A model generated the notes under the pieces. That model was not told the origin of the DNA and made no database searches. It saw only the letters and a list, made by a program, of their open reading frames with translations. Of a stretch of 64,000 bases of DNA, positions 2,459 through 62,624 are shown one piece after another; the stretch's first letter is position 1; every line of letters begins with the position of its first letter. The position numbers and the translations under genes were made by a program. This DNA comes from Candidatus Limnocylindrales bacterium (GTDB lineage Bacteria > Chloroflexota > Limnocylindria > Limnocylindrales > CSP1-4): positions 80,877 through 144,876 of the forward strand of contig JBKKDM010000177.1 in NCBI GenBank assembly GCA_046707905.1, in the 5' to 3' direction.

Positions 2459-2478
2459 TCAACTGGGGAGAACCCTGG
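2459..2478 (-). promoter_or_regulatory. Conserved 20-nt motif copy (revcomp CCAGGGTTCTCCCCAGTTG)
   Basis: Upstream of minus-strand membrane-protein gene. Also in the divergent region before the XRE gene. Confidence 0.4.
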
Positions 2479-2483
2479 TCACC

Positions 2484-2816
2484 GTGTTCGGGGCGCCGAC
2501 GCAGGCGGCCTTGCGACGCTTCGAGCCCACGGTCGAGTCGAGGCTGTACGATCGAGACATGCCTCGAACGAGAGACGTGGTGCGCGAAGAACGCGCCTCG
2601 GCGGCTCGATGGATCGGCCGCCGCCTTGCCGCCGGTCGAGAACGCGCCAGCATGACACAAGTCGCGGCGGCAAGGGCGCTGGGCGTACCGCAGTCGCGGA
2701 TCGCCAAGCTCGAAGCGGGAGCGAGATCCCTGTTGTTCATCGAGGGATTGCGTCTGTCGAGCCTCTATGCGATGGCGCCATCCGAACTCGATCCGAACGC
2801 GACTGAGGAAGCCTGA
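2484..2816 (+). CDS. XRE-family helix-turn-helix transcriptional regulator
   Basis: HTH_XRE signature MTQVAAARALGVPQSRIAKLEAG. Real start may be internal (MPRTRD... about 2559). Confidence 0.6.
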   Translation: MFGAPTQAALRRFEPTVESRLYDRDMPRTRDVVREERASAARWIGRRLAAGRERASMTQVAAARALGVPQSRIAKLEAGARSLLFIEGLRLSSLYAMAPSELDPNATEEA

Positions 2817-3066
2817 CGCCCCCTGAGGAGTGACCGAGCCCCGGCTACACGTCGTCGGCAACTCGTCGGCAGTTCGTCGGCGGCTCTCGGGCCTGCCCCG
2901 GCTCTCTACCATCCCGCGGTGACGATGGCATTCGCCGTGCTCATTCCCCAGCACCGCGTTCGGTAACCGCGGGCTGCCCGCACGTGGCCGAGGGTTCAGA
3001 CGTTGTCCCATCCCTGCACGTTAAGTCCGCGTTCCCTTGGGCAGGCGTAGCGCGTTTCCCGAGCCG

Positions 3067-4194
3067 TTAGCGCCGAACCGTTGTTTCGAACAGCGCGGCT
3101 TGCTCGCCATCAGCCGGGCTAGGGGAAGCGGTGGAAGCGATCAATTGATCGAACCGGGTAACAAAGGCCGGGTCGAGCCCGGCTGCCTTAACGAGAAAAC
3201 GGATGACGTCCGACGCGAGCTTCGCCTCAACAACGTCACGGTGCGGGAAGGCTTCAACCCAAGTAACGCCGCGCCCAGCGATGGTTTCGACACCGACGAA
3301 CTCCAGAACTCGCAGGGCGCCAACGCCAAGATCTCGCCGACGCAGCAGGCGTGACGCCAAATCAGAGAGCTGATCGAAGTAGTCAGGCAGAACTGGAAAC
3401 TTCGACATCCGGTCTACGCGTTCCGGGGCGAGCTCGGCGATAAGTTCCTTGATGCGAGCGGCCAGTCGCTCCTTTTCGCGAAACTCGAATTCACTGCCGG
3501 TCACGATCTGTGCCAGTGATCCACGTCCGTCGGCGACTTGAAGCCGGACGACATCCTCGACGGCGCCGAGCAGCGCGACGAGGTACAGCCAAGCGAGGTC
3601 AAGGACTAGCAGAAGGCACCATTGCTCATCCGGGCGCAAGAGGCGGCTTGCGGCCTGGAGGTAGGCCGGGAGTTGCGTCAAGTTGCGCCGCCGCGGCAGA
3701 GTCCAGTAGTAGGCCCGCCGATATCGCTGCAGTGACTTGGCCGTGTCGGGTGTCTGCGTCGTCGCGACCATCCATCGCTGAAGCTGCTCGGCGGCAAGAA
3801 AACTTCCGGCTGCCGGCAGCATCACTTCGCCCGCCTGCTCCACGAGACCAGCTCTATCCGTGGGGTCCACCGCGGCGATGCCGAGTCGAAGAGCCAACTG
3901 TCGTGCCGCGGAAGCGATCTCCTCGTCGCGAACGAGAAACGCCGAGCGTGCACCAAACAAGTCGGCGACACCACGGAGCCAGAACACCCGCTCCGTCACC
4001 CGGCCCTTGAGTGTCTTGCAGTCGGCGACGGTGAACGCGAGACCGCTAAGCGGCGAATACTCGACGCCCAGAACATCGAGGTCCGTCCACTCTTCATATG
4101 GGGCGCGGGTCCTTGAGCGGGTTCGAGGGACGATCGCACTCAACTTCACATCGACGCGAGTCGCGGCGCCCATGGCCCAAAATGCCCGACGCAT
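3067..4194 (-). CDS. Hypothetical protein (island cargo gene A)
   Basis: Long ORF 3067..4407. Start trimmed to the ATG at 4192-4194 (MRRAFWAMGAAT), which has a GAAGG RBS and lies 25 nt downstream of the stop of the upstream gene. No recognised motif. Confidence 0.4.
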   Translation of the reverse strand: MRRAFWAMGAATRVDVKLSAIVPRTRSRTRAPYEEWTDLDVLGVEYSPLSGLAFTVADCKTLKGRVTERVFWLRGVADLFGARSAFLVRDEEIASAARQLALRLGIAAVDPTDRAGLVEQAGEVMLPAAGSFLAAEQLQRWMVATTQTPDTAKSLQRYRRAYYWTLPRRRNLTQLPAYLQAASRLLRPDEQWCLLLVLDLAWLYLVALLGAVEDVVRLQVADGRGSLAQIVTGSEFEFREKERLAARIKELIAELAPERVDRMSKFPVLPDYFDQLSDLASRLLRRRDLGVGALRVLEFVGVETIAGRGVTWVEAFPHRDVVEAKLASDVIRFLVKAAGLDPAFVTRFDQLIASTASPSPADGEQAALFETTVRR

Positions 4195-6257: not shown

Positions 6258-6259
6258 GG

Positions 6260-6511
6260 TCAGTGCTCACGATCGATCGGAGGATTGGGATCCTTTCGGG
6301 CAATCGTGTCCGAGGACCGGATACGTCCATCCTGCCCGTGCGTGATGACTTCGGCGCCGCCGCTCCGTCGGGCCAAGTCCTTGGCGGCCTTCTCTGCCCT
6401 TGCCTGCGTGGGTTTGACTTCAATGCTCGATCGCGAGTTGCCCGCCCGGACCGCACCCCAGCCATCGGGCCGTTTCACCACATGAATTTGCTTGGGGGTT
6501 GTCTTGGCCAT
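6260..6511 (-). CDS. DUF2188-family small protein
   Basis: C-terminal 83 aa of ORF 6260..7453 (MAKTTPKQIHVVKRPDGWGAVRAGNSRSSIEVKPTQARAEKAAKDLARRSGGAEVITHGQDGRIRSSD) matches the DUF2188 pattern. It has its own ATG at 6509-6511 preceded by an AAGGGAG RBS, but there is no stop between it and the upstream gene. Confidence 0.6.
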   Translation of the reverse strand: MAKTTPKQIHVVKRPDGWGAVRAGNSRSSIEVKPTQARAEKAAKDLARRSGGAEVITHGQDGRIRSSDTIARKDPNPPIDREH

Positions 6512-7453
6512 GTGCTTCGACTCCCTTCGTCTTGTGTCGTTTGCGTCACGAGTAGGTGAAGTGGCTTCTTGGTTGGGTAACTGGAGGTATTCCGCTTCTA
6601 GTAGTCCGGCGATCATGTCGGCGCTCGATGGATCGTCGTTCAGCTTTTGGAGCGGCGTCCAGCCATCAAGCGCTGGATGACTACTCGTCAACAGGCCAGC
6701 CAAGCCCCACGGGTCGTAGCAGGCTAGGCGAGACAAGGCTGGCTTGAGACCTGGCAAGAGGTGAGTTGGCCGGCTCGGATCGAATTGCCAGCGCGGATAC
6801 ACCAGCTTGCGAGAGGACCCGAGAGGCAGGCCGAGTAAAGCCCCACTCTGGCGACGAGCCGCAAGAGTCGTGCGACTAAGCTCGAGGAACTGTTGGATCT
6901 CCGAGGCGGACATCGGCCCACTGCCGCCGTATCGCAAGATCCGATCGCGCTGGTCCAGGAGTCGGTCGTCTGGCTGCCATGCGTCGGAGGTGTCCTCCGG
7001 CGGGGCCTCGCCGGCATGCTTCTCGAGCAGTCGAACGAGGTCGGTAGCGTAGCTCGCGACCATGGCCTCGAAATGCACTCGGATGAGCGTCAACGTTCGG
7101 GCCTTGGCTCGCTTGCCAACCGGGTATTCGGTCAGCAGATCGTAAACGGCTCGCGTCGCCGGCTTGGTACCGCTGGCCTCCCGCCCTCGGTGACCATTTG
7201 CGGTCGGCTCGAAGAGGCGGCCCATCGCCTTGCGGGAGAACGCCGAGACCGGATAGTCAGCAAATCGAACGGCGGCGAGCAAGGCGAGACTTCGGTCCAG
7301 CCCCTCAACGTCGACGGCGTCGACGCTCACATTCCCGGATGGGCCTACTCGAGCGCGCGCAACTTCTACCGCTGCGTTCGTGCTTGTGTCCTTGACTGCG
7401 ACGGTGAGGACGTAGCGGCTTTGGTTGGCCTGTGAGATTGCCTGTGGTCCCAT
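6512..7453 (-). CDS. HTH plus DUF2384 (Xre/MbcA/ParS antitoxin-like) domain protein, reading through in-frame into the DUF2188 gene
   Basis: HTH-like segment MSASEIQQFLELSRTTLAARRQSGALLGLP. C-terminal segment ACYDPWGLAGLLTSSHPALDGWTPLQKLNDDPSSADMIAGLL resembles the DUF2384 antitoxin domain of RES-Xre systems. An extra N-terminal domain of about 150 aa is present. Confidence 0.5.
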
Positions 7454-7493
7454 GCCTTCATGTTGGTCCTGTTCGTAAGTTATGTCAAGTTCG

Positions 7494-8180
7494 TCAACCC
7501 CAGGCGACGCCTACAGCACTGAGAAGGACTGCCCGTGCCTCGTCAAAAGACGCGTCGTCCACAGGTATGCCGGCGTCCCCCGGATTGAGTGTTGTCAGCG
7601 TCCTCGGCTCGAAGATGGCGACGTTAGGCCCATGGCCGCCTCCGAGGCGGGACCGATACACGAGCCCGCCAAGTTGGTCGTCGCAGTCGAAGAATCGGCG
7701 CGACCACGCCTGAGTCAGCGAATACCGACCCACGGTCCCAATGCGATCGTCAAGTCGATCAGGACCGCGCTGTACCCCGAGGACGGCGGGCGCTTGCAGG
7801 TTCAGGAGGCGAACCTCCTTGTCGACTCTTACCGTTCCGCAAACTCGACCTAGTCGCTGGGCCGGCGTAACCAAGCGCCCGGGAGTATCGCCATACACCT
7901 CCAGAAACGCCCCGGTGGCAGTCCGCGACCCATACCACACCGCGTATTCGACCCGGGGGTCGTCGAACCGATAGCGGGCAGGCGCCCTCTTCAGGATGTA
8001 GAGGAGCGGATGACCGGTCGCACCTGAAGGCAGCCCACCCACGTGGAATAGAGAGAGATCGGTGCCGCCGCCGAGCTCACCCGCCAATTCACCCGCCGTG
8101 ATGATGGCCGGTTCGAGCTCGAGCGACGTGCAGTCAGGCGGAGGAAGCGGGAGCGGACTTGGTCCGGCGGCCGTGGACAT
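7494..8180 (-). CDS. RES-domain protein (putative NAD-targeting toxin of a RES-Xre pair)
   Basis: RES signature RYRFDDPRVEYAVWYGSRTATGAFLEV (R...YxS...E spacing). 228 aa, immediately upstream of and co-oriented with the Xre/DUF2384 gene. Confidence 0.7.
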   Translation of the reverse strand: MSTAAGPSPLPLPPPDCTSLELEPAIITAGELAGELGGGTDLSLFHVGGLPSGATGHPLLYILKRAPARYRFDDPRVEYAVWYGSRTATGAFLEVYGDTPGRLVTPAQRLGRVCGTVRVDKEVRLLNLQAPAVLGVQRGPDRLDDRIGTVGRYSLTQAWSRRFFDCDDQLGGLVYRSRLGGGHGPNVAIFEPRTLTTLNPGDAGIPVDDASFDEARAVLLSAVGVAWG

Positions 8181-8404
8181 TCGGCTGGGCTCCTACGAGG
8201 TCCTCGCAACCCACCGCTCGCGACAAGGTGGGTATCGATGGGCACGAAATCAAACGTGCGCGCTGGCACGTTCGATGAGTATTCGTCGACACGACTGCGA
8301 CCACAATCGGGGAGAACCCTTGTCGCGCAGCCGTTGGGCCGCCCGACGGTCCGAAGCCGGATGGGCTTTGCGGCGCCGGATCCGAGGTGTTGCGACCGGC
8401 GGGC

Positions 8405-9269
8405 CTATGCGAGCCTGCGCCTCCGAGCCGGGCGAAGGCCTCGAATGGGGATGACGCGGGCGTGCTCCGCCTTGACCACAGCGTCGGACGGGTGCTGGTA
8501 GACGCGCTGACTCTTCTCGTCCGCGTGACCCATGATCTGCTGGCTGATGCGCGGATGCATGTTGCCGTTGGCGGCCGTCGTTCCGAAATAGTGGCGCAGG
8601 CGATGGAGCCCGAAACGGGTGGAGCCGCCGCCCCGCTTGTAGGCACGCGTGATTGCTTGGTAGAGCCCGCTCGGCGTCAGGCGCTCGCCGCGGGCCGATG
8701 GAAAGAGCGGAGCACGGTCGGACATCTCCTCAGGCCGCGTGCCGCTGATGGCGGGTCGGTCGCGCCGAAGGTAGGTGCGGATCGCGGACACAGTCTCCCG
8801 GCTGAGGGGCGCCCGGCGTTCGCGATCCCACTTGCCGTGACGTACCAAAGCCCAAGCGTCCCCGAAGATCGATGTCCATCACATAGCTACGGGTGACATC
8901 GCTGGTGCGGTGACTGGTGTCGGTCGCGAGCAGGATCATCGTGGCGTCACGTCCTCGTCCTCGAAGTCGGGCTCGGGCCGGTTCTCGGCTCGTTGAGCAA
9001 CTAGGTGTTCGTGTCCTACAGTCGTAGCGGTAGCCCTTCTCGGTCCGGTCGTTGATGATCGAGGCGGAGGCGGCGAGGAACTCCTCGAAGAGATCGTCGA
9101 GCGAGAGAGTCGCGGAGTAGCGCGGAGCCGAGCTCAGAGGGACCGATCGGCCCCGGGCCGGAGGTTCGGGCCGCCCTCTGGATACGTCATGGATCTGTCC
9201 CGCTGCCGGATCTTTCGAGGCGGCGCGCGTAGATCGCTCACCGTTCCTCGCCCCGCGGCGGGGGACCAT
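8405..9269 (-). pseudogene. Tyrosine recombinase / phage integrase, frameshifted
   Basis: Two overlapping minus-strand ORFs in different frames. ORF 8730..9269 carries an N-terminal SAM-like segment (SLDDLFEEFLAASASIINDRTEKGYRY). ORF 8405..8848 carries the catalytic C-terminus (LHRLRHYFGTTAANGNMHPRISQQIMGHADEKSQRVYQH, the HxLRH...Y box). It lies adjacent to the 3' end of a tRNA gene. Confidence 0.6.
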
Positions 9270-9440: not shown

Positions 9441-9516
9441 TGGAGCGGGAGAAGGGTCTCGAACCCTCGACCTTCTGCTTGGGAAGCAGACACTCTGCCA
9501 GCTGAGTTACTCCCGC
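9441..9516 (-). tRNA. tRNA-Gly (anticodon CCC), CCA encoded
   Basis: Reverse complement of 9441..9516 folds as a canonical tRNA. Acceptor stem is GCGGGAG/CTCCCGC, anticodon arm is TCTGC-TTCCCAA-GCAGA, T-arm is GAGGG-TTCGAGA-CCCTT, discriminator is T, and a 3' CCA is present. Confidence 0.85.
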
Positions 9517-11341: not shown

Positions 11342-11987
11342 CGTTGTCGTATTCCGCTTGGGTCGGCGCTGTGTTCCATTTGATCGTGTTGAATCGATCC
11401 CATGCGGAACTGGTCACGTTGTTCTCGTGGAGGTGATAGCCGGTCCAGCAATCGGGGACCGCGGCGTCGCTGGCGGTGTCGCCGATGTTGAAGCTGTTGA
11501 ACCATGAGTAGTCCCAATAATTGGGGCCACCTTGGAAGAGGATGTCTTTCGGTGATGTCGTCGAAACCACCGCATGCGCAAAGACCATCTGCCCCTTGAC
11601 GAGCCCGTCCCAGGTCGATCGGATGCGGGCCTGGGCTTGGTCAATGTACCCGCTCCCTGCCCCAGTTCCGCAAAAGGGGTCCGGGAGCTGGTAGGGCTCA
11701 GCCTGGGCCCACGGGATCAACACAATGTCAGGTTCATCCTCACTCAGCGCTCGGGTCCGGAAGTAGATGTTCGAAGTGCCAGAACCGCAATTCTTGTTCC
11801 AATCGAGTGCGTCCCCATTGGCGGAATGCCAGCGCTGAGTGAGGCATGAGCTGGCGCTCGAGACGTCCATCGGCGGCATCATCCAGATCCGCATGTCATA
11901 AGGACCGGCGGCCGAGATAGGTGACGCGGAGACGCCGAGGATGACTGCGCAAACGCCGGCAAGAAGGGCCGCGCGGCGAAGATTCAT
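11295..11987 (-). CDS. Secreted hypothetical protein
   Basis: N-terminal signal peptide MNLRRAALLAGVCAVILGVSASPISAAG. Trp/Asn-rich mature part. Confidence 0.5.
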   Translation of the reverse strand: MNLRRAALLAGVCAVILGVSASPISAAGPYDMRIWMMPPMDVSSASSCLTQRWHSANGDALDWNKNCGSGTSNIYFRTRALSEDEPDIVLIPWAQAEPYQLPDPFCGTGAGSGYIDQAQARIRSTWDGLVKGQMVFAHAVVSTTSPKDILFQGGPNYWDYSWFNSFNIGDTASDAAVPDCWTGYHLHENNVTSSAWDRFNTIKWNTAPTQAEYDNDAVGNWTRSLGWVDD

Positions 11988-12745
11988 CGGATTCCCTCCG
12001 CCAGCTGCACGAGCTCGTCAAATGGGATTCCGTTGTCAGCGAAGACGCGGAGCACCACGTACTCCGGATCGGCGTCGTCCTCGATCACGATGACCTGTCC
12101 TGTCCCCAAGCCGAGCTGTGGATCGGCCGGCTGAACGAAGATCGCAGGAGCACCATTGATGGTGCCTTCGGTCACCCTGTCGTATGGAGCCATGAGGTCG
12201 ATGTCCCGCTTACCCCATATCGCCCGATACACCATGAGGATCCCTTCGCCAAGCGGAGTATCTAGCGTCATCATGCTGGTGACGTTGAGTGCCGCACCGT
12301 CGCAGACCCACTTCGTGACTTCTGGCTTGCCCCGGACCTCGATGTCGGCGGGGACGTAGGTGAGCGTGAAGTCCAGTTCGGTCGCCGTGTCGCTGTCGAC
12401 CAACTCCGGCTCGCAATCCAGGGACAGGTTCCTGCCAAGCCCTTCCTCTTCGAGGATGTTGTCTGGAGCCAGCCGCCAACCTTGGAGGACTCCGTCGAAG
12501 AGAGGCTTCTCGCTCTCCTCGGTCAGGATGCGGCGGATTTCATCGATCGCCATCGGGCCCGGCCGCGCCGGCTCTCTGCCGCCGCGCGCTTCGACGAGCG
12601 CTTGGTAGATCGGCCGGTCATCCGCCGGCGGAGCCGCAGTCGCCACCGGCGAGCCCGCAGTCGCCGACAGGGACCCCGCCAGAACAGCTGACATAGCGAG
12701 GACCAGCGCGCCTGTCCAACTCATCTGCCTCAGCCGGAACAGCAT
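11984..12745 (-). CDS. Secreted hypothetical protein
   Basis: ORF 11984..12889. Likely start MLFRLRQMSWTGALVLAMSAVLAGSLSATAGSP (signal peptide) at 12745. The conserved 20-nt motif lies about 100 nt upstream. Confidence 0.5.
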   Translation of the reverse strand: MLFRLRQMSWTGALVLAMSAVLAGSLSATAGSPVATAAPPADDRPIYQALVEARGGREPARPGPMAIDEIRRILTEESEKPLFDGVLQGWRLAPDNILEEEGLGRNLSLDCEPELVDSDTATELDFTLTYVPADIEVRGKPEVTKWVCDGAALNVTSMMTLDTPLGEGILMVYRAIWGKRDIDLMAPYDRVTEGTINGAPAIFVQPADPQLGLGTGQVIVIEDDADPEYVVLRVFADNGIPFDELVQLAEGIR

Positions 12746-12844
12746 GCCCACCTCCGCCGCTCGGATGCGACGAGCTTTCGGGACGAGCGAAAGCCTTCGC
12801 GTGCACCGTCCCGGTTGAACACTAGTGCCGTCTCCCGAGCGCAC

Positions 12845-12864
12845 AACTAGGGATAACCCTCGAC
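12845..12864 (-). promoter_or_regulatory. Conserved 20-nt motif copy (revcomp GAGGGTTATCCCTAGTTG)
   Basis: About 100 nt upstream of the secreted-protein gene starting about 12745. Confidence 0.35.
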
Positions 12865-17179: not shown

Positions 17180-17334
17180 TCCCTGACCTCCCTCGCAGCG
17201 GTCCAGCGCGATACATCTGTTCGCCGACGCTGCGTCCCTTCCACGTGCGCTCCCCCAGGCTAACGGGCGCCATTCGGGGGCGAGCGAGGTGCGCTCGGTG
17301 ATGCTGCCAACCTTAGTGCGTGTGTCTCCGCACG

Positions 17335-48080: not shown

Positions 48081-48127
48081 CTCGAACCTCCCTCCAAGGT
48101 TGCCCCGGTGCGTAGGCTTCTGAGGCT

Positions 48128-50401: not shown

Positions 50402-50427
50402 CCTAGGGTTCTCCCCAATTGCCCTAG
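50402..50427 (+). promoter_or_regulatory. Conserved 20-nt motif copy (CCTAGGGTTCTCCCCAATTG, flanked by the CTAGGG/CCCTAG palindrome)
   Basis: 77 nt upstream of membrane-protein gene 50479. GCGACGAT follows 19 nt downstream. Confidence 0.45.
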
Positions 50428-50478
50428 CAGGGAACAATCGCGACGATCTCGAGAACCGGTCGACCGCTCGAGCGAGAA

Positions 50479-51958: not shown

Positions 51959-51977
51959 CCCGGGTTTTCCCCAGTTG
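51959..51977 (+). promoter_or_regulatory. Conserved 20-nt motif copy (CCCGGGTTTTCCCCAGTTG)
   Basis: 112 nt upstream of the DUF4157-M14-M15 cargo gene. Confidence 0.4.
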
Positions 51978-52070
51978 CGAGAGGGCGCATAACGGCTCAG
52001 TCTGAGTTCCGCACACCGCGCCGGTAGCCCATCGACCCGAGCCACCTCCCGGGCGGCCTTTGGATCGCCG

Positions 52071-54350
52071 ATGCCCACATTCCAGACAGCTCGCGGAAAC
52101 CTCACAGCGGCAGGGCGGCAAGTCCCCTCCGAGGTTCGTGGGCTGCGCGTTTCAAGAGTCGGTGACGCTGCAGAGACATCGGCGGAGGCGGCCGGGTCGC
52201 TTCCACCACTCGAACGTCCGAAAAACCAGCGGGAGACCCTGCCACGAGCCCCCAGCCGATATGCCCCCTCGTGGTTGGGTCCTGGCCAGCCTCTTGACCC
52301 AGCGCTCCGGCGACGATTCGAGGCGCGGCTTGACCATTCCTTCGCGGACATCCGTATCCACGACGACACCAGGGCGAATGCTTCTGCGATCGCGCTTCAG
52401 GCCCGCGCGTACGCAGTAGGCCGCCACGTTGCTTTCGCCCCCGGGTACTACGAGCCGACAACCGAAGCCGGATTCGCTCTGCTCGGTCATGAGCTCGCAC
52501 ATGTCCGGCGCCAGGCAGGCGAAGGCACTGCGATCGACCGGGCACCGATGCGCGATGCTGAGCTCGCGCGGCTGGATCGCGAGCTCGCCGCAGGTGTTCC
52601 GCTCACCCAGTCAAACGGCGAGATCGGTGCAGCTGCTGATGCTGGGACCACGGTTCCACCCGGCGAAGACACGAGCCTGCCAATCGTGATGCGCGTCTAT
52701 CGCGCTGCCGCGGCGCTCATTCCGACGACTGGGACGCCCGCGGTCCCGTCTGCGCCTTCGGCACCTGCTCCGCCGCCTGGGCCTGCCGGCACGCGCAGCG
52801 ACGCCGGTGTCCCATACAGCGACGCCGCTCCTACCGACGGGCCGCCGGTCGCCGCGATGCCGGCCGAAGCACCGACTGCCGTTGGCCCGACGTCGTCTTC
52901 GCCGCCTCCGGCCAAAACCCCTCCGACTCCTCCACCTCAGCGCGCTCTTGTGGTTGGCGGCGTCCACGGTGACGAGCGCGGACCCCTGCAGCTGGTCGAT
53001 GCCCTCGATCGCGAACTAGCGGCCGGCGCCCGCCGGGACTTCGATACGTTTGTCATTCCCCGGATGAATCCATGGGGAGTCGCCAACGGCGCGCGCGAAA
53101 ACCGCCGCGGTGTGGACCTCAACCGCAACTTCCCAGGCCTCCGCGGGTTTCCCGCCGCCGCCGGACCAGTCCCGGCCGAGCAACCGGAGGTTCGGGCGGT
53201 TCGCCGGGTCATCGAAATCCTTCGGCCGGTGCGGATCCTGGCGCTTCACGCGATTGGCGGCGCCGAGAAAGGAGGCGTCTTTGCCGATCCCGTCGAGGGT
53301 GCCGCCCGAGATCTGGCCGCTCGAATGGCGTACGCGATGGGCCCCGCGAATGTCCGGGGCAACGTCCTCCGAAATGGTGCCTTTAGCGCCCGGTACCCAG
53401 AGTCCGCGTCGGTCAGCGTCACGACATCGCAGAGCAGCCTTGGCGCATGGGCATCGGCACCGACAGCCGTCGGTGGACGGGGAACTGCCGTGATTACACA
53501 CGAAGTGCCCGACAAGCCAGCCCTGGCCGCAACCGGTTCCCGCTCAGTGGCGAGCATCATGCCGGGTCTTCGCGAGTTCCTCGTCAGCAACGGAGGTGCG
53601 GCATCGGCCGCCGATGGCGCCCTCCGGGCGGCGGTCACCGACGCCTTCCTCACGGGCGAGCAGACGACTCCTGCTGAAGCCAGGCTACTTGCCGACATCA
53701 GCGGCGTCGTCAACAGTCGCTTTGCCGACATGGCGGCCCACTACAGCGCCGTTTGGCTACCAGCAAATCGCGGTCCTGGACTGCCGCCCAGACTCTCGAT
53801 CGTCGGAGGCCAAGGCGTCCGCCGTTTCCCGGACCAGGCGGCGATCGTCCGGGGTCAGCTCGGGGCGCTGACCGCCACGAGCGCGGACGCGCAGATCCGC
53901 GCCGAGATCGAACGCGTTCTCACAACCCGGTCCATGCCGGGCTTCTCGCGCCATCACTGGGGAACGGACATCGACATCGTCTCGGCGGACCGTGTGCGCT
54001 GGACCGGTACCGGGGACCTGGTCGCGCTGATCCCGTTCATTCGCGATCACGCACCCCGGTTCGGCTTCTTCAATCCGTATGCAGGCCCGAGCGGCACGCC
54101 CGCTAGTGGCGGGTTCCCGAGTCCGGCAGCCCCCCACTACCTGGAGGAGCCGTGGCATCTCTCCTACGCCCCGATCGCCACGGTGTTGCAAGCCGAATGG
54201 GCGCGTCGAATCACCGGAGCTGTGCTTGACGGCTTGGTAACACGGACAGCCGCGGCCATCCGCGGGCCCATCCCGCAGGCGACCATGGAGCGCGTGCTTC
54301 GTGGTATGGGCTTGACGAGCTATCAGACCAACGTGGCGTCGCCTCCGTAG
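52071..54350 (+). CDS. DUF4157-domain cargo protein fused to M14 zinc-carboxypeptidase-like and M15 (VanY / D,D-peptidase-like) domains: putative peptidoglycan-hydrolysing eCIS effector (candidate 3)
   Basis: DUF4157 signature LDPALRRRFEARLDHSFADIRIHDD...ARAYAVGRHVAFAPG...LLGHELAHVRRQ. M14 motifs VVGGVHGDERGPLQ (HxxE), IPRMNPWG, GVDLNRNFPG. M15-like SRHHWGTDIDIVS. Pro/Ala-rich linker between the domains. Confidence 0.8.
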   Translation: MPTFQTARGNLTAAGRQVPSEVRGLRVSRVGDAAETSAEAAGSLPPLERPKNQRETLPRAPSRYAPSWLGPGQPLDPALRRRFEARLDHSFADIRIHDDTRANASAIALQARAYAVGRHVAFAPGYYEPTTEAGFALLGHELAHVRRQAGEGTAIDRAPMRDAELARLDRELAAGVPLTQSNGEIGAAADAGTTVPPGEDTSLPIVMRVYRAAAALIPTTGTPAVPSAPSAPAPPPGPAGTRSDAGVPYSDAAPTDGPPVAAMPAEAPTAVGPTSSSPPPAKTPPTPPPQRALVVGGVHGDERGPLQLVDALDRELAAGARRDFDTFVIPRMNPWGVANGARENRRGVDLNRNFPGLRGFPAAAGPVPAEQPEVRAVRRVIEILRPVRILALHAIGGAEKGGVFADPVEGAARDLAARMAYAMGPANVRGNVLRNGAFSARYPESASVSVTTSQSSLGAWASAPTAVGGRGTAVITHEVPDKPALAATGSRSVASIMPGLREFLVSNGGAASAADGALRAAVTDAFLTGEQTTPAEARLLADISGVVNSRFADMAAHYSAVWLPANRGPGLPPRLSIVGGQGVRRFPDQAAIVRGQLGALTATSADAQIRAEIERVLTTRSMPGFSRHHWGTDIDIVSADRVRWTGTGDLVALIPFIRDHAPRFGFFNPYAGPSGTPASGGFPSPAAPHYLEEPWHLSYAPIATVLQAEWARRITGAVLDGLVTRTAAAIRGPIPQATMERVLRGMGLTSYQTNVASPP

Positions 54351-54415: not shown

Positions 54416-54435
54416 CCTAGGGAACTCCCCGATTG
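54416..54435 (+). promoter_or_regulatory. Conserved 20-nt motif copy (CCTAGGGAACTCCCCGATTG)
   Basis: 94 nt upstream of four-TM protein gene. GCGACGAT follows 17 nt downstream. Confidence 0.45.
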
Positions 54436-54509
54436 TCACGGCGACGCCCGAGCGCGACGATGCGTAGGCGCCCTACGCACCTGGGCGATCGCAAGTTGGA
54501 GGCGCCGTC

Positions 54510-55283
54510 GTGACCGATCAGCCGACGCGTGATCCCCAGGTTACGGCGAACTCCGCTCGAATTCGAGCGCGGAGCTATCTGAACGTCGAGATGCTCCTCC
54601 TCGGCGTTTCGGTGGTGCTCCTTGGCGGGGCTGCGATCCTGCTCGCCCACTACGGGTTCACGTCTCGACCCGAAGTCGTGACGACGATGGTGATTCTCCT
54701 CGGAATCGTCGTCCTCCTGGTGGCGATCGGTGCGTTCGTCGCACTGCTCCGCGGATTTGACCTTGCCGACCGCAGGTACGCCCTCGGTCTCCCTGACGGA
54801 AGCGTTCGGGCGATCCTCGCACTCGGGCTTCTCCTCGTTTTCGCCATGATCTCCGTGTTCCTCTATTGGGACGCCGCGCACCCGCCGCTGCTGCAGTCTG
54901 TTGGCATCACCGCCGAGCAGTTGGCCAAATTCGAGGACGGCACCATCATCGCGATTGAGCCCGGTCCTACCGTGGGCACCTTTAACGTTCGAACGGTCGC
55001 GACGAATGCCAATGCCCAGCAGCTAGGACAGCAACTGGTGACACTCCTTGGCACCCTCGTGACAGCGATCGCCGCCTTCTACTTCGGCGCGACCTCCGTT
55101 GCCTCGGCGACGAGCACTTCGCGCGAAGGCGCGACGTCCGACGGCGAGCGGCCATTGGGGAAGACAGACCCCTCCGAGGCTAGCGAGGGCCAGGGGGAAA
55201 TGTCGCAATCCGAACTGGCTGCCGCTCGCCGGGCTGAACTCAAGAAGCAGGTGCCGAAGGTCCCGCCGCTGCGGCAGGAGTAG
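54510..55283 (+). CDS. Four-TM membrane protein (candidate immunity protein for cargo 3)
   Basis: GTG start with the 20-nt motif 94 nt upstream. TM helices MLLLGVSVVLLGGAAILLA, VVTTMVILLGIVVLLVAIGAFVALL, ILALGLLLVFAMISVFLYW and LVTLLGTLVTAIAAFYFG. Confidence 0.5.
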   Translation: MTDQPTRDPQVTANSARIRARSYLNVEMLLLGVSVVLLGGAAILLAHYGFTSRPEVVTTMVILLGIVVLLVAIGAFVALLRGFDLADRRYALGLPDGSVRAILALGLLLVFAMISVFLYWDAAHPPLLQSVGITAEQLAKFEDGTIIAIEPGPTVGTFNVRTVATNANAQQLGQQLVTLLGTLVTAIAAFYFGATSVASATSTSREGATSDGERPLGKTDPSEASEGQGEMSQSELAAARRAELKKQVPKVPPLRQE

Positions 55284-55342: not shown

Positions 55343-57139
55343 TTGATGTTTGACGCGATACGTCGGCCGGTATCTGGCCTCTCGGCTGTTGGATTCGCTC
55401 CGTCACCTCGTCGCGGAACGCCCATTCCCGATGCGCTGCGATTGTCGATGGAGGCGTCTTTCGGGCACAGCTTCGCCAACGTTCGCGTCCACGAGGGCCC
55501 CGAAGCTCGGCGAGCGGCGGCATCCATCGGGGCCGCGGCGTTCACGACCGGCGACGACGTTGCGATCGGGGCGGGCCAAGCGCTCGACAGCCCTATGGGG
55601 CACAGACTCGTAGCCCATGAGCTCGGCCATGTCCTGCAGCATCGACGTCATCCGCGCCTGGTTGAACACGCGCGCGTGTCCGGACGCGGTGGTGCCGCCG
55701 AACGCGAGGCCACGTCCCTTGCCGTCGCAGCCTTCCCCCATCCGTTGGCGCGCCGACGTGGCGCCCGGTCGCCAGTCCGCCTCGAAGCCGTCGAGATCGG
55801 CGCAGGAGTCGATCGGCAGGATCTCGACGCTGGAGTTGGGGGCGCGGGTCCAGCGCCGCCCGCTACCACTCCCTCTCCAGGCGCCTCGGCGAGCGATGTC
55901 GCCGTGCTGGTCAAGGCATGGCTTGATTACGCCGTGCCGGGAGTGGCAGCTGGGATCGGCGATCCCGATCGGGCCTACGCCATCCTTCGAAGTCTCGACT
56001 CAGACAAGCTCCTTGCGGTGCTTGGGGAGCTGGATCGGCTTGCTTACCTCGCCGTCCTCGAAGGCTACAGCGGTGCAGGGCGGGCGGATCCGCGAACCGA
56101 GCCCTTCTTCCTGGCGGTGAAGTATCGCGAGCACGACTTGGCTGATGCCGATCGAGCTCGTGGACCCTCCAAGATCTCCAGCCTCGATCCGGGCGACCAA
56201 GCCGCTGTTCGCAGGTATCTTGCCCCGCTCGGACAGCACCGGGTCGAAATGTTCGTCAGTGGAGCAGACGCCGAATCGACCCGACTCGCGGGTCTCACCC
56301 TCGACGCGCTCGAGGCGAAGCGGAAGGCGGCGGAGGCGCAGGCGAAGGTGGAGGCCGACGCGGCCGCCAAGGCTGCCGGCAAGGCCCCGCCGGCGACGGC
56401 TCCTAAGGTCGACCTGGGAACGGTCGTTGCAAAGGATGTCGACAAGCTCAAGATCCAACCGCTCGCCACCGACGCTTGGACCAAGCTCCCGGACCCGACG
56501 AAAGCCGATTGGACGAACCGCCGGGCGCCGGCGGCGATCGCGGCGATCATGGCGAGCATCAAGGGCACGCCGCTAGAGGCCACGATGACAGGGCATTCCA
56601 TCGTGTTTGAACCACTGAAGATGCTGGAGCGCGGCGGCTATGCCTACCAGGATGGTCCGAACCTGGTCGGGGGCACGGCGTTCATCGCAGACGCCGAACG
56701 CGACCCGAAGAGCGTGTGGGGGATTCTGGCCCACGAGATCGGCGGCCACTTCGAGTACGGGACCACCTACGCGGACGCCATTGCGAAGAAGGTCCTGGCG
56801 AGGCTGCCCGAGACCGACCGTAAGCGCTACTCGGAGACGAAAGAGGGCCGGGCTGCCTTCTTCGACACGTACATCTACTCCGAGACCGAGATTTTCTCTG
56901 CCCTGCGCCAACGCCAATACGATGTTCCAGTCAGTGGCCCCGCACCAAGCCATGGCGCGATCAAGCCCGACGCCAATATTGCTGGACGCCTCGACACCTT
57001 GGCCGCCGCATATCCCCCCCACGTCGTCAACGCGATCCTTATCGAGCTGAATCGCCGCGTCCAGGCAAGTTCCAACATCCTTGATCGCGACAAGGCGTAC
57101 TTCGTCGCGGAAGCGAAGAAGCGGGGGCATCCCCTTTGA
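55343..57139 (+). CDS. DUF4157-domain protein (eCIS cargo/toxin candidate 4) with C-terminal HEIGGH zincin-like motif
   Basis: DUF4157 signature LRLSMEASFGHSFANVRVHEGPEARRAAASIGAAAFTTGDDVAIG...LVAHELGHVLQH. Coiled-coil (EAKRKAAEAQAKVEADAAAKAAGKA). C-terminal ILAHEIGGHFEYG. Confidence 0.75.
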   Translation: MMFDAIRRPVSGLSAVGFAPSPRRGTPIPDALRLSMEASFGHSFANVRVHEGPEARRAAASIGAAAFTTGDDVAIGAGQALDSPMGHRLVAHELGHVLQHRRHPRLVEHARVSGRGGAAEREATSLAVAAFPHPLARRRGARSPVRLEAVEIGAGVDRQDLDAGVGGAGPAPPATTPSPGASASDVAVLVKAWLDYAVPGVAAGIGDPDRAYAILRSLDSDKLLAVLGELDRLAYLAVLEGYSGAGRADPRTEPFFLAVKYREHDLADADRARGPSKISSLDPGDQAAVRRYLAPLGQHRVEMFVSGADAESTRLAGLTLDALEAKRKAAEAQAKVEADAAAKAAGKAPPATAPKVDLGTVVAKDVDKLKIQPLATDAWTKLPDPTKADWTNRRAPAAIAAIMASIKGTPLEATMTGHSIVFEPLKMLERGGYAYQDGPNLVGGTAFIADAERDPKSVWGILAHEIGGHFEYGTTYADAIAKKVLARLPETDRKRYSETKEGRAAFFDTYIYSETEIFSALRQRQYDVPVSGPAPSHGAIKPDANIAGRLDTLAAAYPPHVVNAILIELNRRVQASSNILDRDKAYFVAEAKKRGHPL

Positions 57140-57756
57140 CGACCCCCGATCCCGAGGTGCGCCGCGAAATCTTCGCGCTGGCGAATGACCATCCGGACCC
57201 TCCGATCGCAGCTATGGATGCCCTCCGGTCGCGAGGTCGCGAAGTGGTTCCGGTGCTACTCGAGGCGATCCGAGCGGATGAGTTCGGCGGGGTCGCCCTC
57301 GGACGACTCCTCGACGTCGTGACGGAGCTTGACCCCGATGCCGCTGTCGCCGCGGCAACCCTTCTCGTTGAGGATCCTCGCGGCAACGTTGCGCAAGCGG
57401 CCGTTCGCACCCTCGGGGTAGTCGGTTCTCCGGCCGCGCGCCAGGCCCTGCAAACGATTGCCGGTGGTTCTGATGCTGACGCCGCCGCCTATGCACGGAT
57501 CCTGCTCGGGCCTAGGGTTCTCCCCAATAGCAATCTCGTCGCTGCACGCCGAGATTCGTGGCAACCTCGACCCCGATGGTCGGGTCGCACCCGCGGGGTT
57601 CCCGAAATGGCGAAGACGAGTCCGTGGCATTCAGTGAAGGCAGACATTCACCACAACAACACGAACTGCAACACGGGCAACAACATCGAGAAGGAGAACC
57701 GGCGCGAAGGGACGGGCGGGAAGCCGCTGTGTGCCGAGTGCGCACGGCTGCCATAA
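57136..57756 (+). CDS. HEAT-repeat (PBS-lyase-like) protein, possible immunity factor; the C-terminal 49 aa may be a separate small Cys/His ORF
   Basis: TTGA overlap start. Repeats VVPVLLEAIRAD...AVAAATLLVEDPRGNVAQAAVRTLGVVGSPAARQAL. The in-frame ORF continues across a copy of the 20-nt motif (57511) to MAKTSPWHSVKADIHHNNTNCNTGNNIEKENRREGTGGKPLCAECARLP, which has an ATG at about 57607. Confidence 0.45.
   Translation: MTTPDPEVRREIFALANDHPDPPIAAMDALRSRGREVVPVLLEAIRADEFGGVALGRLLDVVTELDPDAAVAAATLLVEDPRGNVAQAAVRTLGVVGSPAARQALQTIAGGSDADAAAYARILLGPRVLPNSNLVAARRDSWQPRPRWSGRTRGVPEMAKTSPWHSVKADIHHNNTNCNTGNNIEKENRREGTGGKPLCAECARLP
57511..57530 (+). promoter_or_regulatory. Conserved 20-nt motif copy (CCTAGGGTTCTCCCCAATAG), nominally intragenic
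   Basis: Inside the 3' part of the HEAT-protein ORF, 96 nt upstream of the ATG of the small Cys/His ORF (about 57607). Confidence 0.4.
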
Positions 57757-58041
57757 CCCCTGTGGCCGTGGTGGGAGCGAATGTGAATTCCCACCACGTC
57801 CCTGTTTGCCTCTCGATCCACGATTGGCCAAACGCGGCGCAGAGCCTGGACGCGCAGACCCCGCACCGCCGTTAGAGCGCGATAGCCCTCCGATCGATCC
57901 CCGTGAAACCCGACCGTCGGCTCCGCGTGGGTATGGCCGGCACCGCCCTCGCACGACTCAAGAACGCTCAACCCGAGCGCGGCGCAACACGGTCCCGGCC
58001 TCGGCATTCCGGGTCCAATCGCGTCTCAAGCATGTCGCTAG

Positions 58042-58752
58042 CTAGCCCGAGAAGACTCGCACTAGATCGATCATGTCCTTGATCTTCCCTGCGTTGTTGA
58101 ATACCCATTTCGCCGCCGCGCCCGCGACCTCGAGGCCATCCGGCGCCTCTCCGCTCCGTGGAGCCGCCATGAGGTTCAGTGGCTTGGTGGTTTCTTCCAG
58201 GAGCTCCAAGCCATTCGACACGACGCCTGCGATCCGGGGGATGAGGGCCTCGTCGCCGAGATTAATCGTCCCCTTGTCGCGGTCCACGCTGACAACCAGA
58301 TTCGTTCGCGCACCCGTGACCGGGTCGGGTTGAGTGAGGAGGGCAAGGTCGTCGACGCGTCCGTAGAGACCGTTGTCGTTGACGCCCATGAATAGAGGTC
58401 GAGTGGCGTAGAGCTCGTCCCAGACGCGCTTCCGAAACTGCTCGTCCTTGGGTCCGTACATCAGCCGGCGGATGGGCTCGAGCGCCTGTCCGAAGCTTGT
58501 CGCGACCATCAGGCCCCCGCGGGGGTATGGCAGGAGGTAGGCGACCGCCACCAGGGACCCGGCCTCGTATCGCACTTCAATTTCGAGTTCGGTGAAGTCC
58601 GGCAAGGCACGTCGACGAAGACCGCTCGCCCACGTGTCATAAGGGCCGGCAGCCCAGCGCGGCTGCACCAGGAAGCGCAGCGAGCCGACAGGTTCAACCT
58701 CGATGTCGGCTGGCATGAGCCAGCGATCCGGAGTTCGGGCCTCGCCAGCCAT
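58042..58752 (-). CDS. Hypothetical protein
   Basis: ORF 58042..58851, start trimmed to MAGEARTPDRWLMPADIEV. Last gene of a three-gene minus-strand cluster. Confidence 0.4.
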   Translation of the reverse strand: MAGEARTPDRWLMPADIEVEPVGSLRFLVQPRWAAGPYDTWASGLRRRALPDFTELEIEVRYEAGSLVAVAYLLPYPRGGLMVATSFGQALEPIRRLMYGPKDEQFRKRVWDELYATRPLFMGVNDNGLYGRVDDLALLTQPDPVTGARTNLVVSVDRDKGTINLGDEALIPRIAGVVSNGLELLEETTKPLNLMAAPRSGEAPDGLEVAGAAAKWVFNNAGKIKDMIDLVRVFSG

Positions 58753-60382: not shown

Positions 60383-60838
60383 CCCGGGCTGCAGCAGATT
60401 CACGAGCGCCGCTGGATAGCCGAGCCACGTCCTCGGCGTGTCATGCGTCAGATCGAAGGGCGGGCTCTTGAGCACGCGCAGGCGAAGGGTGCAGCGCACG
60501 CGATAAGCCGTGTGGGATCCGAGGTTGCGCACGTCTCGGGTCTTGGAAACGTCGTAGCGGACGAGCCCGTATCCCTGCCGAACGACGGGTCTGCCCCGGT
60601 CACTTGCCTACCAGCGCTGCCCGGGCGGACGGTTGAAGGCACGATTGAGGGCCGCGCCACCGATAACGATCGCACCGATCACGACGCCGGGGAGTGAGGT
60701 CAAGAACGCGATCACGTCATCCATCGCAGAAACTACCTCTACAGTTGCCCGCGAGCATAGACCTCAGGAGAGCGGCGTCTGTACGCGAACAGACCCCGCG
60801 GGCGCGGCTGAGCTAGACACTTCGGAACGGATCTTGAG

Positions 60839-61570
60839 GTGCTCATGCCTGAAGACGTAGACGCCAGCATCGCCGCTCGGTTCGCGCCGCTTGTAGGAGT
60901 GTGGCGGGATGACCTACCTGCCGATCCGGATCCCTGGCTGCGCGAAGCCGACTTGGTGCGGTACGACGACGCCGGGACGGCCACGACGATCGGTATCGCA
61001 GGTGATACTGACCAGTGGCCGGCAGATGCTCGGTCCGACGGCGTGCGGCCGAACGAGCGATCGGCCGCCGGCCTCGCGTCGGTTCCGCGATCCCGCGCCG
61101 CGAAGTTGGTGCCGGTCGGTGGAGAGGCAGCGAGCTTCGGGCGGTTACCCCTGCGTGGGGGACGAGTCGACGCTCCATGCTTCTACGAAGCCGAGGCAGA
61201 CGCGGCCGGTGTGCTGCTCACCTACTGGTTCTTCTTCCCGACGAGCACGACGCCGGCCAACCAGTTCACCCAGATGCTGCCCGTGATCATCGATGCGATG
61301 CGCCACGGCGAGCTCTCGCCCACCGAGTTTCCGCCTGTCTCTGTCGAGGCGCCACGAAACCTCGTTGACCGCTTTTGGGAATGGGTGGCGCGCAGCTCCC
61401 CCTTCGGAAAGGACCTCGTTCGCTCGGCGCGGAGCATTGGCGCACTTGGAACGTTTGCCGCGGTCCTGCCGTTTCGAGCGCTGGGGGTGGATACCAAAGC
61501 CTTCATCAAGCAGCTCGACCCCCGCGTTCAGGATCTGATCGCCTCGGTGTACGTCCACGAGGGGGATTAG
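60839..61570 (+). CDS. Hypothetical protein
   Basis: 243-aa protein-like ORF. No recognised motif. Confidence 0.4.
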   Translation: MLMPEDVDASIAARFAPLVGVWRDDLPADPDPWLREADLVRYDDAGTATTIGIAGDTDQWPADARSDGVRPNERSAAGLASVPRSRAAKLVPVGGEAASFGRLPLRGGRVDAPCFYEAEADAAGVLLTYWFFFPTSTTPANQFTQMLPVIIDAMRHGELSPTEFPPVSVEAPRNLVDRFWEWVARSSPFGKDLVRSARSIGALGTFAAVLPFRALGVDTKAFIKQLDPRVQDLIASVYVHEGD

Positions 61571-62604
61571 GAAGGTATCTCCGTGCGGCTGAACACCGCC
61601 GGAGCCCTCGAAGAAGCGATCTATTGGGCGCACGGAAAGCCGGTGATTGACGCGCGACCGGAGCTGCAGGTCGTCGACGGAGTCGATCGGATCCTCGTCA
61701 GCGTCGCGGGAGGATCCCACGCCTGTGGGAGGGCGAGCGCTGATGGCGCCGGCGCACGCGGCTTCGACCCAGCCCGGCGGCTCCAAGAGGAAGTGTTCCC
61801 TGGAGCGACCGGCGCCCATTGGCGGACGTGGGACCATCTGCGCCCGGCGCCGTCGCAGCTCTGGTACGGCTTTGCAGGTGCCTGGGGGCGCCCGCGGCTG
61901 CCGCCCGTCGGATCCCTTGACCGCCGCCGGTTCGGGTCAATGGACATCTGGGTCGAATCGACCGGCCCATTGGGTCCTGGCCCACTCAAGCTGGCGCGGA
62001 ATCGCCAAGCGGCGTCGATATTGTGTCCAGCGGGCGAGTGCGTTTGTTCCGCCTTCTATTGCGTCGCGAGACGGCCAACGGCCTCCAATGAGCGGCCGTC
62101 CCAACCCCGGCCCTAAGGCTCGATATAGACAAGTCGAGCGATCCCCGCCGCGAGCGACGGGTCGCGGGCGGGCTGGTCCAAGACCGGACATCCCGATATC
62201 GATTGGACTTTCGTCGACTGGTACGAGAAGAATGTGGTTACGAGTTGGGACGGCTTCTGTTGGCGGACGACCACGCCTCTTTCCGGGCCGCTGTCCGCTT
62301 GGACCGACGCCTCAAGTCACGAGTAGCGCGGCGCGGCCTGCACGCCTTGACAGGCCCCGCGTACGGCGGGTGGTCCCACTGCTGAATGGCACGCATGTAG
62401 TCGCGGCAATGCCTGCGCATGACAAGCCGCGGGCCGAGACTCCGCGGCCTGCGTGGGCTGTCGCCGGGCGCCGGGGGGCTCGGAAGGCTCAAGAGGCGAT
62501 GCCGCCGTTGCCTGTTGGTCACATCTAGGTTGGCGTCTCAACTCGCCTCGGTTCGCGGATCACGTGGATCGACGCCATCGCGACGACGGTCGGCGAGACC
62601 GACG

Positions 62605-62624
62605 CCTAGGGTTCTCCCCACTTG
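62605..62624 (+). promoter_or_regulatory. Conserved 20-nt motif copy (CCTAGGGTTCTCCCCACTTG)
   Basis: About 240 nt upstream of the ATG of the partial GST/P450-like ORF. Confidence 0.4.

Follow-up and report, generated by a model that had tools for sequence, protein, structure and literature searches.

A recurrent inverted-repeat promoter element and its candidate NarL/FixJ-family regulator around a contractile injection system of Candidatus Limnocylindrales

In mycobacteria, the NarL-family regulator DevR/DosR recognizes a G/C-rich, palindromic GGG...CCC box that is usually adjacent to the −35 element and occurs as multiple or paired boxes; the Dos box is a 20-bp palindrome in which GGG and CCC lie about 8 bp apart. 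SARPs also act at or beside the −35 element, and contractile injection systems can have dedicated regulators, such as the RfaH-like AnfA1 of Serratia Afp. To our knowledge, the switching of extracellular contractile injection systems (eCISs) is poorly understood outside a few model organisms, and we know of nothing on it for Chloroflexota. Here, we describe a recurrent promoter element in a 64-kb stretch of DNA (contig JBKKDM010000177.1, positions 80,877 to 144,876; hereafter, the window), which is the eCIS island of a Candidatus Limnocylindrales (Chloroflexota) genome and has a G+C content of 63–71%. The closest described architecture is found in E. coli, where a single NarL dimer occupies a 16-bp 7-2-7 inverted repeat at −43.5 of the yeaR promoter, upstream of a weak −35 element, and activates transcription mainly through the C-terminal domain of the RNA polymerase alpha subunit (PMC10853779). 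In derivatives of the ogt promoter, NarL activates from −44.5 and also from −67.5 (PMC7419079). We read the element of the window, with a probability of about 0.6, as a NarL-type, yeaR-like activator site that would define a regulon. In the full-text library searched, neither the motif nor any other promoter motif of Limnocylindria is described, nor is two-component control of an eCIS or a shared promoter cassette on its cargo genes.

The element, (c)tAGGGTTcTCCCcAaTTG, is present in the window in 12 strong copies, against about zero expected from shuffles, and is the top direct-repeat family of the window according to an independent repeat finder. The 20-mer CCTAGGGTTCTCCCCAATTG has seven matches at up to 3 mismatches and none in 100 dinucleotide-preserving shuffles, and the 16-nt core has 11 matches at up to 2 mismatches, compared with a mean of 0.16 and a maximum of 1 in shuffles. 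When a weight matrix built from all copies was run across the window, the scores were bimodal, with 12 copies at 17.5–34 bits, a single 9-bit match, and nothing between. The weak match (29970–29985, + strand) lies inside a coding region, has no −10 hexamer at the right distance, and is treated as a chance occurrence outside the system. No RNA family in Rfam overlaps any of the copies. The first-pass annotation, which had proposed a recurrent, non-chance motif of about 20 nt, is borne out by these counts, and its coordinates are correct to within 1–4 nt; all of its roughly ten copies were recovered, together with two more, at 8304(−) and 17508(+), that were missing from its list. The core starts of the 12 copies are 2460−, 8304−, 12844−, 17335−, 17508+, 48149−, 48178+, 50406+, 51962+, 54420+, 57515+, and 62609+. 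Orientation with the downstream gene, which had been claimed for every copy, holds for all 12: each lies 5′ of a gene, with GGGTT...TTG reading towards it, and the motif ends about 68–190 nt before the start codon, varying with the start called. With their −10-like hexamers, the copies form the following cassettes.

Cassette 1, 2434–2478, − strand: CCAGGGTTCTCCCCAGTTG, −10 CACGCT (2434–2439), predicted transcription start site (TSS) at about 2427; gene for a 636-aa signal-peptide protein, 391–2301(−).
Cassette 2, 8278–8322, − strand: CAAGGGTTCTCCCCGATTG, −10 AATACT; genes for a RES toxin, 7494–8180(−), and a DUF2188/Xre-MbcA-ParS protein, 6260–7453(−).
Cassette 3, 12819–12862, − strand: CGAGGGTTATCCCTAGTTG, −10 TAGTGT, 16-nt spacer; gene for a 253-aa signal-peptide protein, 11984–12745(−), and two downstream genes to 10007.
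Cassette 4, 17309–17353, − strand: CAAGGGTTATCCCCAATTG, −10 AAGGTT or TAAGGT; operon from an S1 protease, 15878–17179, to an extracytoplasmic function (ECF) sigma factor, 13651–14175, and 13000–13650.
Cassette 5, 17505–17549, + strand: TAAGGGTTCTCCCCTATGG, −10 GACGAT; gene for a SARP-like (BTAD) regulator, 17635–18450(+).
Cassette 6, 48123–48167, − strand: TTTGGGAACTCCCCAATTC, −10 TAGCCT; gene for a secreted partner protein, 47496–48080(−).
Cassette 7, 48175–48219, + strand: CAAGGGTTTTCCCCACTTG, −10-like CACGCT; faces the kinase/regulator operon, inside the longest kinase open reading frame (ORF).
Cassette 8, 50403–50447, + strand: CTAGGGTTCTCCCCAATTG, a perfect copy beginning 81 nt past the regulator stop codon (50322), −10 GACGAT; gene for a 477-aa protein, 50512–51945.
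Cassette 9, 51959–52003, + strand: CCCGGGTTTTCCCCAGTTG, −10 CAGTCT; gene for an eCIS_core + M14 + VanY cargo protein, 52071–54350.
Cassette 10, 54417–54461, + strand: CTAGGGAACTCCCCGATTG, −10 GACGAT; genes for a membrane protein, 54510–55283, and an eCIS_core protein, 55448–57139.
Cassette 11, 57512–57556, + strand: CTAGGGTTCTCCCCAATAG, −10 GAGATT; in the 3′ extension of a HEAT-like ORF, 57157–57756; the target is uncertain, perhaps the small ORF 57731–58045.
Cassette 12, 62606–62650, + strand: CTAGGGTTCTCCCCACTTG, −10 AAGAAT; GST-like gene with its start at 62775 or 62811, running off the window.

The −10 hexamer follows the motif at a fixed distance. In a set of 68 non-redundant copies from the window and related contigs, in which the −10 positions had not been used for selection, nAnnnT lies exactly 17 nt after TTGnnn in 50 copies and within ±1 nt of that spacing in 58, against a background of 2.7% for nAnnnT across these loci. 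Such a hexamer follows every one of the 12 window copies (GACGAT three times, CACGCT twice, and AAGAAT, TAGCCT, TAGTGT, CAGTCT, GAGATT, AATACT, and AAGGTT or TAAGGT once each). The GCGACGAT that the first reading had noticed behind two copies does lie 18 nt after those at 50406 and 54420 and is itself the −10 hexamer GACGAT, which also follows copy 17508. Information in the flanks is limited to motif positions −2 to +16, plus A and T at positions 38 and 42, respectively, and the −35 element is conserved only as TTG, the last three bases of the motif, which is why a scan with the stock consensus promoter found none of the cassettes. Hexamers TTGnnn and nAnnnT spaced by 17 ± 1 nt are the arrangement of a sigma-70-type promoter, and this fixed spacing indicates that the motif is the upstream half of one, with TTG as its predicted −35 element and the 13–16 preceding bases as an added element.

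Nothing is conserved at positions 17–36, and the pairing typical of ECF promoters, a GGAAC-type −35 with a CGT-type −10 at 16–17 nt, was not found. This bears on the proposal that a dedicated alternative sigma factor, either the ECF sigma factor encoded at 13651–14175 or another, reads the motif as an extended −35 element. The ECF sigma gene does lie in a copy-headed operon, a layout resembling autoregulation, and two copies read GGGAAC, similar to an ECF −35; however, the conserved nAnnnT hexamer 17 nt after TTGnnn has primary-sigma geometry, no conserved CGT-type −10 occurs 16–17 nt after GGGTTC or GGGAAC, the conserved block extends 14 nt beyond the reach of sigma region 4 contacts, and the ECF sigma factor of the window has no homologue in the other motif-rich loci. 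The alternative sigma site suggested in the first-pass annotation is thus very improbable, and TTGnnn-N17-nAnnnT fits a primary-type sigma factor plus an activator site instead. Three further readings of the motif were discarded: as a sigma-54 promoter, the GG...TTGC spacing is 2–3 nt off and the −10 is left unexplained; as a Sigma-I-like promoter with an ACCCCC −35, no conserved element is found at the required distance; and as a PhoB/SARP-type 11-nt direct repeat, the halves do not match one another.

Directly before the −35 TTG lies a 16-bp imperfect inverted repeat, YTRGGGW-NN-WCCCYAR (motif positions −2 to 13), composed of two 7-bp halves with a 2-bp gap. In the 68 copies, the left half-site reads Y(93%)-T(46%)-A(85%)-G-G-G-T, where Y is C or T, the right half-site on the bottom strand reads Y(90%)-T(88%)-G/A-G-G-G-A, and the two agree at six of seven positions. 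The center of the dyad is motif position 5.5 and the −10 hexamer occupies positions 37–42, so that, taking the TSS to be 7 nt after the −10, the dyad would be centered at −43.5, with the site abutting the −35 element. The near-identical copies of 19–28 nt found by the repeat finder might recall a mobile repeat, that is, a miniature inverted-repeat transposable element or repetitive extragenic palindrome, or a recently copied "mobile promoter" without regulatory meaning. Embedding in a longer repeat unit with terminal inverted repeats, which the first-pass annotation had raised as a point to be checked, was not found: conservation is confined to the 19 nt (−2 to +16) and the −10, the flanks carry no information, and copies occupy orthologous positions in genomes whose flanks have diverged. 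As the unconserved flanks argue against both a repeat unit and a recently copied promoter fragment, this explanation has a negligible probability.

The geometry of the element resembles that of the NarL-dependent yeaR and ogt promoters in three respects: a 16-bp 7-2-7 repeat abuts a weak −35 element with an inferred center at −43.5, the candidate binder is a NarL/FixJ-family regulator accompanied by a HisKA_3-type kinase, and, of the paired sites at the kinase locus, the second has an inferred position of −66.5, comparable to the NarL site at −67.5. In contrast to NarL, which controls respiration genes, the targets here are secreted-protein, toxin, and eCIS genes, and the regulator is not a NarL equivalog, as it reaches no equivalog cut-off in NCBIfam (at most 135 bits compared with at least 250). 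DevR/DosR offers a second likeness, to be taken as a lead only, in its NarL-family membership, GGG...CCC palindromic site, and paired sites, although GGG and CCC are 4 bp apart in the element described here and the regulon content differs. SARP-activated actinomycete promoters are similar in that a cluster-situated site lies next to or overlaps a poor −35 element and that a SARP-like gene belongs to the system; SARP boxes are, however, direct heptamers with 11-bp spacing, whereas the present site is an inverted repeat that is also found in loci without a SARP gene within 10 kb on either side.

The candidate regulator is encoded in the window together with its kinase and a divergent partner gene.

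47496–48080, − strand: partner gene for a 194-aa secreted protein with a signal peptide; orthologues are 45–57% identical.
48128–49705, + strand: HisKA_3 sensor histidine kinase, with an uncertain start codon (48128, 48170, or 48190).
49693–50322, + strand: NarL/FixJ-family response regulator with a receiver domain and a GerE helix-turn-helix (HTH); proposed binder of the motif.

Five further loci were fetched through orthologues of the regulator with 79, 77, 75, 66, and 61% identity. In all six loci, including the window, a 171–199-aa secreted protein is encoded divergently from a HisKA_3 kinase and the regulator, and two back-to-back copies lie between the partner and kinase genes, with a fixed offset of 29 nt from start to start and dyad centers 23 bp apart, which ties the motif to the regulator and kinase genes. 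Further copies number one to six per 20-kb regulator locus and 10 in the 64-kb window, and the genes behind them in the regulator loci are variable, encoding an RHS toxin, an ABC transporter, an M14 peptidase, and metallo-beta-lactamase-fold, PLD-like, BNR, and small HTH proteins. No window genes other than those for the partner, kinase, and regulator have a match in each of the five fetched loci; matches to the SARP-like, ECF sigma, and Xre genes are missing from at least some of them. A tblastn comparison of all window proteins with the motif-bearing loci gave few matches, among which the regulator adjoins copies in loci L073 (71% identity) and L104 (52%). The recognition helix of the regulator, SRKTVExHLSRMYER, is nearly invariant among the orthologues, and its closest solved relatives are DesR, DevR (second-best), ChrA, NarL, and VraR. 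Of the binders named in the first-pass annotation (the ECF sigma factor, the SARP, and the NarL-type regulator), the last is by far the best candidate; the other two appear to be encoded by target genes rather than to bind the motif. The partner protein contains several conserved cysteines and a GWNDRISSF motif, and it matches beta/gamma-crystallin and Inhibitor_I36 only below threshold (E ~2e-3).

The (+) copy of the pair, cassette 7, allows more than one role. Its dyad lies at −66.5 relative to the partner-gene promoter. An ATG 50 nt upstream of it is kept in six of six loci and overlaps the −10 (CCATAG) of the divergent promoter (window 48123–48130), so that the conservation of this codon is ambiguous, and the "conserved" N-terminal residues of the kinase (AELG..., GKGFP) are the translation of the two motif copies. 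The (+) copy may be a kinase promoter, in which case the kinase would have an unusual start codon; alternatively, it may serve the partner promoter as a second upstream site or act as an operator for autoregulation. As this copy could act as a roadblock within the kinase ORF, and as the site touches the −35 element, the motif could also be a repressor operator at which the response regulator or an Xre-type HTH protein blocks a constitutive promoter. An Xre-type HTH gene (2484–2816, +) is divergent from copy 2460, and homologues of it occur near copies in L088 (2070–2342, 54% identity) and in L149 (4769–5008, 57%); small HTH_31 genes unrelated to it are motif-driven in L149 and L151. This operator reading is nevertheless improbable, since the −35 element consists of TTG alone and the site ends at −36, short of the −35 and −10 elements, both typical of activator dependence, and the Xre gene is unmatched in L147, L148, L150, and L151.

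The motif is not specific to eCISs and follows the conserved kinase/regulator module: loci without an eCIS within 10 kb on either side still carry both the module and the motif. Nine loci totaling 232 kb contain 44 copies, of which 33 are centered in intergenic DNA, which makes up 12% of the sequence. The remaining 11 fall inside called ORFs and are mostly the paired copies within the kinase ORF, one of them being window copy 57515. A copy precedes 42 of the 98 transcription-unit starts in these loci, a density that is an upper bound because the loci were picked through the motif, an eCIS, or the regulator. The eCIS structural operon and the genes for RNase T, a helicase, TP_methylase, and an APH kinase have no copy in the same loci. 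Of the 53 first genes behind a copy, 25 scored positive in a crude test for an N-terminal signal or anchor, compared with 24 of 143 other genes (Fisher p = 3e-5), a modest enrichment given that 12 of the 25 positives are repeated kinase or partner orthologues. About half the targets have no recognizable domain.

The other multi-copy contigs are labelled Chloroflexi or Limnocylindria. In Chloroflexi UBA5189, eight copies fall within 24 kb, near genes for an S8 protease, a phospholipase-C-like protein, an ABC/FtsX exporter, an acyl-CoA-dehydrogenase-like protein, a 76-aa peptide, and an RHS C-terminus. Three perfect copies lie on a Limnocylindria contig of 4 kb, and copies on a 230-kb metagenome contig precede genes for an RHS-like protein of 1055 aa and a secreted metalloprotease. 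A genome scan with AGGGTTCTCCCCANTTG gave, among the matches listed, mostly chance single matches from unrelated phyla, alongside a few multi-copy Chloroflexota contigs. About ten of the 116 matches listed in the genome scan for the exact 17-mer belong to the lineage, and three of these share a 208-kb contig, on which they are no more than 32 kb apart; an 18-mer had 21 matches in 241 million metagenome records, about half of them chance matches in low-GC sequence and about ten plausible. A viral scan gave two matches, both by chance.

These counts bear on whether the motif marks strong promoters of any kind throughout the lineage, as a general, G/C-rich element of the UP-like or extended −35 type that the alpha C-terminal domain or the primary sigma factor of RNA polymerase would read directly. 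The 42 motif-bearing starts in 98, the functional diversity of the downstream genes, and the position of the element at the place of the proximal UP subsite agree with such a role. The choice of loci, however, favors the motif, which is absent from the eCIS structural operon and from housekeeping-like genes (RNase T, helicase, TP_methylase, APH); copies of intermediate strength do not occur, few 17-mer and 18-mer matches were found in the genome (among those listed) and metagenome scans, and the dyad symmetry suits a dimeric factor. No A/T-rich tract of the UP type is found between −40 and −60, where the block is G/C-rich with invariant GGG...CCC. A general element is therefore unlikely, and the copy-free genes, the scarcity of exact matches, and the bimodal scores favor a clustered regulon over a general promoter type.

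The motif-rich island of UBA5189 (contig DHWF01000026.1, 24–56 kb; L049/L057/L088) has no eCIS gene in the stretch covered. It also encodes two haem-oxygenase-like "iron-containing redox" proteins, a methyltransferase, and 76–81-aa peptides, functions read from the sequence without a domain search, and may be a cluster for a ribosomally synthesized and post-translationally modified peptide (RiPP-like) or for a toxin. In L116, an orthologous acyl-CoA-dehydrogenase-like gene likewise lies behind a copy. In a Thermoleophilia metagenome-assembled genome (MAG) with 55% G+C (L021), two near-identical units of at least 110 nt at 3908 and 7835, in which the 16-mer is followed about 30 nt on by TATGG or TATGA, look like a duplicated gene upstream region in another lineage.

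A motif copy conserved between genomes precedes the SARP-like gene, which stands beside the structural operon of the injection system.

17635–18450, + strand: SARP-like regulator (BTAD), aligning with the N-terminal 263 residues of AfsR.
18826–44764, + strand: complete eCIS structural operon (sheath, tube, baseplate, AAA ATPase, DUF6519, eCIS_core).

In three related eCIS loci (L142, L144, and L146), in which the sheath is 82–90% and the SARP-like protein 64–81% identical, a copy lies 94–121 nt upstream of the orthologous SARP-like gene amid diverged flanks, so that, with the window, the copy is conserved in four genomes. No motif copy is found upstream of the structural operon (18826–44764). 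The particle genes would therefore be controlled indirectly, with the SARP-like gene, a conserved putative target of the motif, as the probable link to the eCIS operon. Dedicated regulators beside an eCIS would parallel other contractile injection systems, such as Serratia Afp. The SARP-like protein might itself bind the motif, autoregulating its gene and activating the cargo genes, as its own promoter carries a copy in the four genomes, it aligns with the N-terminal region of AfsR, and its family is known to act at or beside the −35 element. This is quite unlikely in view of the inverted repeat in place of tandem heptamers at 11-bp spacing, of the absence of an 11-bp direct repeat in or upstream of the motif, of a site that ends 23 nt before the −10, and of loci L147, L148, L149, and L151, which have three to eight copies and no BTAD gene within 10 kb on either side; moreover, a better candidate for a SARP box lies elsewhere.

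That candidate consists of three direct CTCAG/CTGAG repeats with an exact 11-bp period (18471–18497). They lie between the SARP-like gene, whose stop codon precedes them by 21–47 nt, and the eCIS operon. The repeats are invariant in the four genomes (window, L142, L144, and L146) with varying spacers, and they lie about 55 nt from the nearest conserved −10-like block, TGCTAGAAC (18549–18557), compared with the canonical 8 bp. Upstream of the first called eCIS gene (18826), a block at about 18590–18800 shows 3-periodic conservation, with an 89-aa ORF called there in L144, so that the eCIS operon may begin with an unannotated small gene.

The closest relative, L150, is syntenic with the window over 44.8–57.8 kb, from the end of the eCIS through three minus-strand genes, the kinase, the regulator, and the eCIS_core cargo to the HEAT-like gene. 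Three genes are missing from L150, those for the 477-aa protein, the M14/VanY cargo protein, and a 257-aa membrane protein, which in the window are headed by copies 50406, 51962, and 54420, respectively; motif-headed genes thus seem to be gained or lost as units. Upstream of the window gene at 44777–45715(−), only "GGGTTC" is left (45716–45901), while its orthologue in L142 is motif-driven.

From the copies, their orientation, the fixed −10, their conservation across genomes, and their linkage to the regulator, all of which are computed, we infer the TSSs, the binding protein, and activation rather than repression. In the proposed mechanism, the sensor kinase (48.1–49.7 kb) would phosphorylate the NarL/FixJ-family regulator (49693–50322), a dimer of which would bind the inverted repeat just upstream of the weak −35 element and recruit RNA polymerase containing a primary-type sigma factor, as NarL does at E. 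coli yeaR. The conserved core of the regulon would comprise the divergent secreted partner gene and the kinase/regulator locus with its two back-to-back sites. Its accessory part in the window would comprise the eCIS cargo, the SARP-like regulator, the S1-protease/ECF-sigma operon, the RES toxin pair, the secreted proteins, and the GST-like gene; the two cargo units would be direct targets, and the eCIS structural genes would be reached indirectly through the SARP-like gene. The shared promoter or operator that the first-pass annotation had proposed as a link between cargo and secreted-protein genes gains from the tie to gene starts and orientation, the fixed-distance −10, the orthologous conservation, and the lack of a longer repeat.

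Several points weigh against a NarL-type activator site. The left half-site is weaker at its outer positions (T at −1 in only 46%), so that the dyad is only partial, and the half-site consensus is YTRGGGW rather than the TACYYMT of NarL, so that what is shared with NarL is an architecture and geometry, not the NarL site. Autoregulation by activation is no more than a possibility, given that the (+) copy falls within the longest kinase ORF and that, in L148 and L151, no in-frame ATG, GTG, or TTG is found downstream of its predicted TSS. The motif-rich stretches of UBA5189 (L049/L057/L088), L116, and L068 contain no kinase or regulator gene in the 4–24 kb covered, although such genes could lie elsewhere in those genomes. 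Copy densities are biased by the choice of the nine loci, and the presence of a regulator gene near the sites is no proof that its product binds them.

Further features of the window concern its identity and the genes around the cassettes. The sheath protein is 90% identical to its closest named relative, from a Candidatus Limnocylindrales MAG, and the eCIS_core domain (PF13699) occurs in three window proteins, one of which also has M14 and VanY peptidase domains. Under one motif copy, the RES toxin and a 397-aa Xre/MbcA/ParS-like/DUF2188 protein (6260–8180, −) look like a RES-Xre type toxin-antitoxin pair. A tRNA-Gly(CCC) gene (9441–9516, −) lies beside a truncated phage-integrase-family ORF of 128 aa (8405–8791, −), of which only the C-terminal part is present, and the left 9 kb of the window may be an island integrated at this tRNA gene.

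More speculatively, and at odds we would put at rather less than even, the three-gene module may be the master switch of a variable "antagonism arsenal" of Limnocylindrales (eCIS cargo with its SARP regulator, RHS toxins, proteases, toxin-antitoxin pairs, and RiPP-like clusters), in which the 19-bp site plus −35 element would serve as a portable plug-in promoter that wires newly acquired weapon genes to one signal, and the secreted partner protein might be part of that signal. If the regulator is assigned correctly, the "non-canonical class II" architecture at −43.5, known from NarL, would gain a second natural example in which the half-site is a different one. As a sequence tag, the site could also help to find secreted, toxin, and cargo genes under common control in Limnocylindrales metagenome bins, and the 19-bp site, the predicted start sites, one candidate regulator with its kinase, and the target list together give an experimental handle in an uncultured soil lineage. 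The system is not surprising in principle, but it is a testable entry into the regulation of eCISs and their accompanying arsenal in an uncultured order of Chloroflexota.

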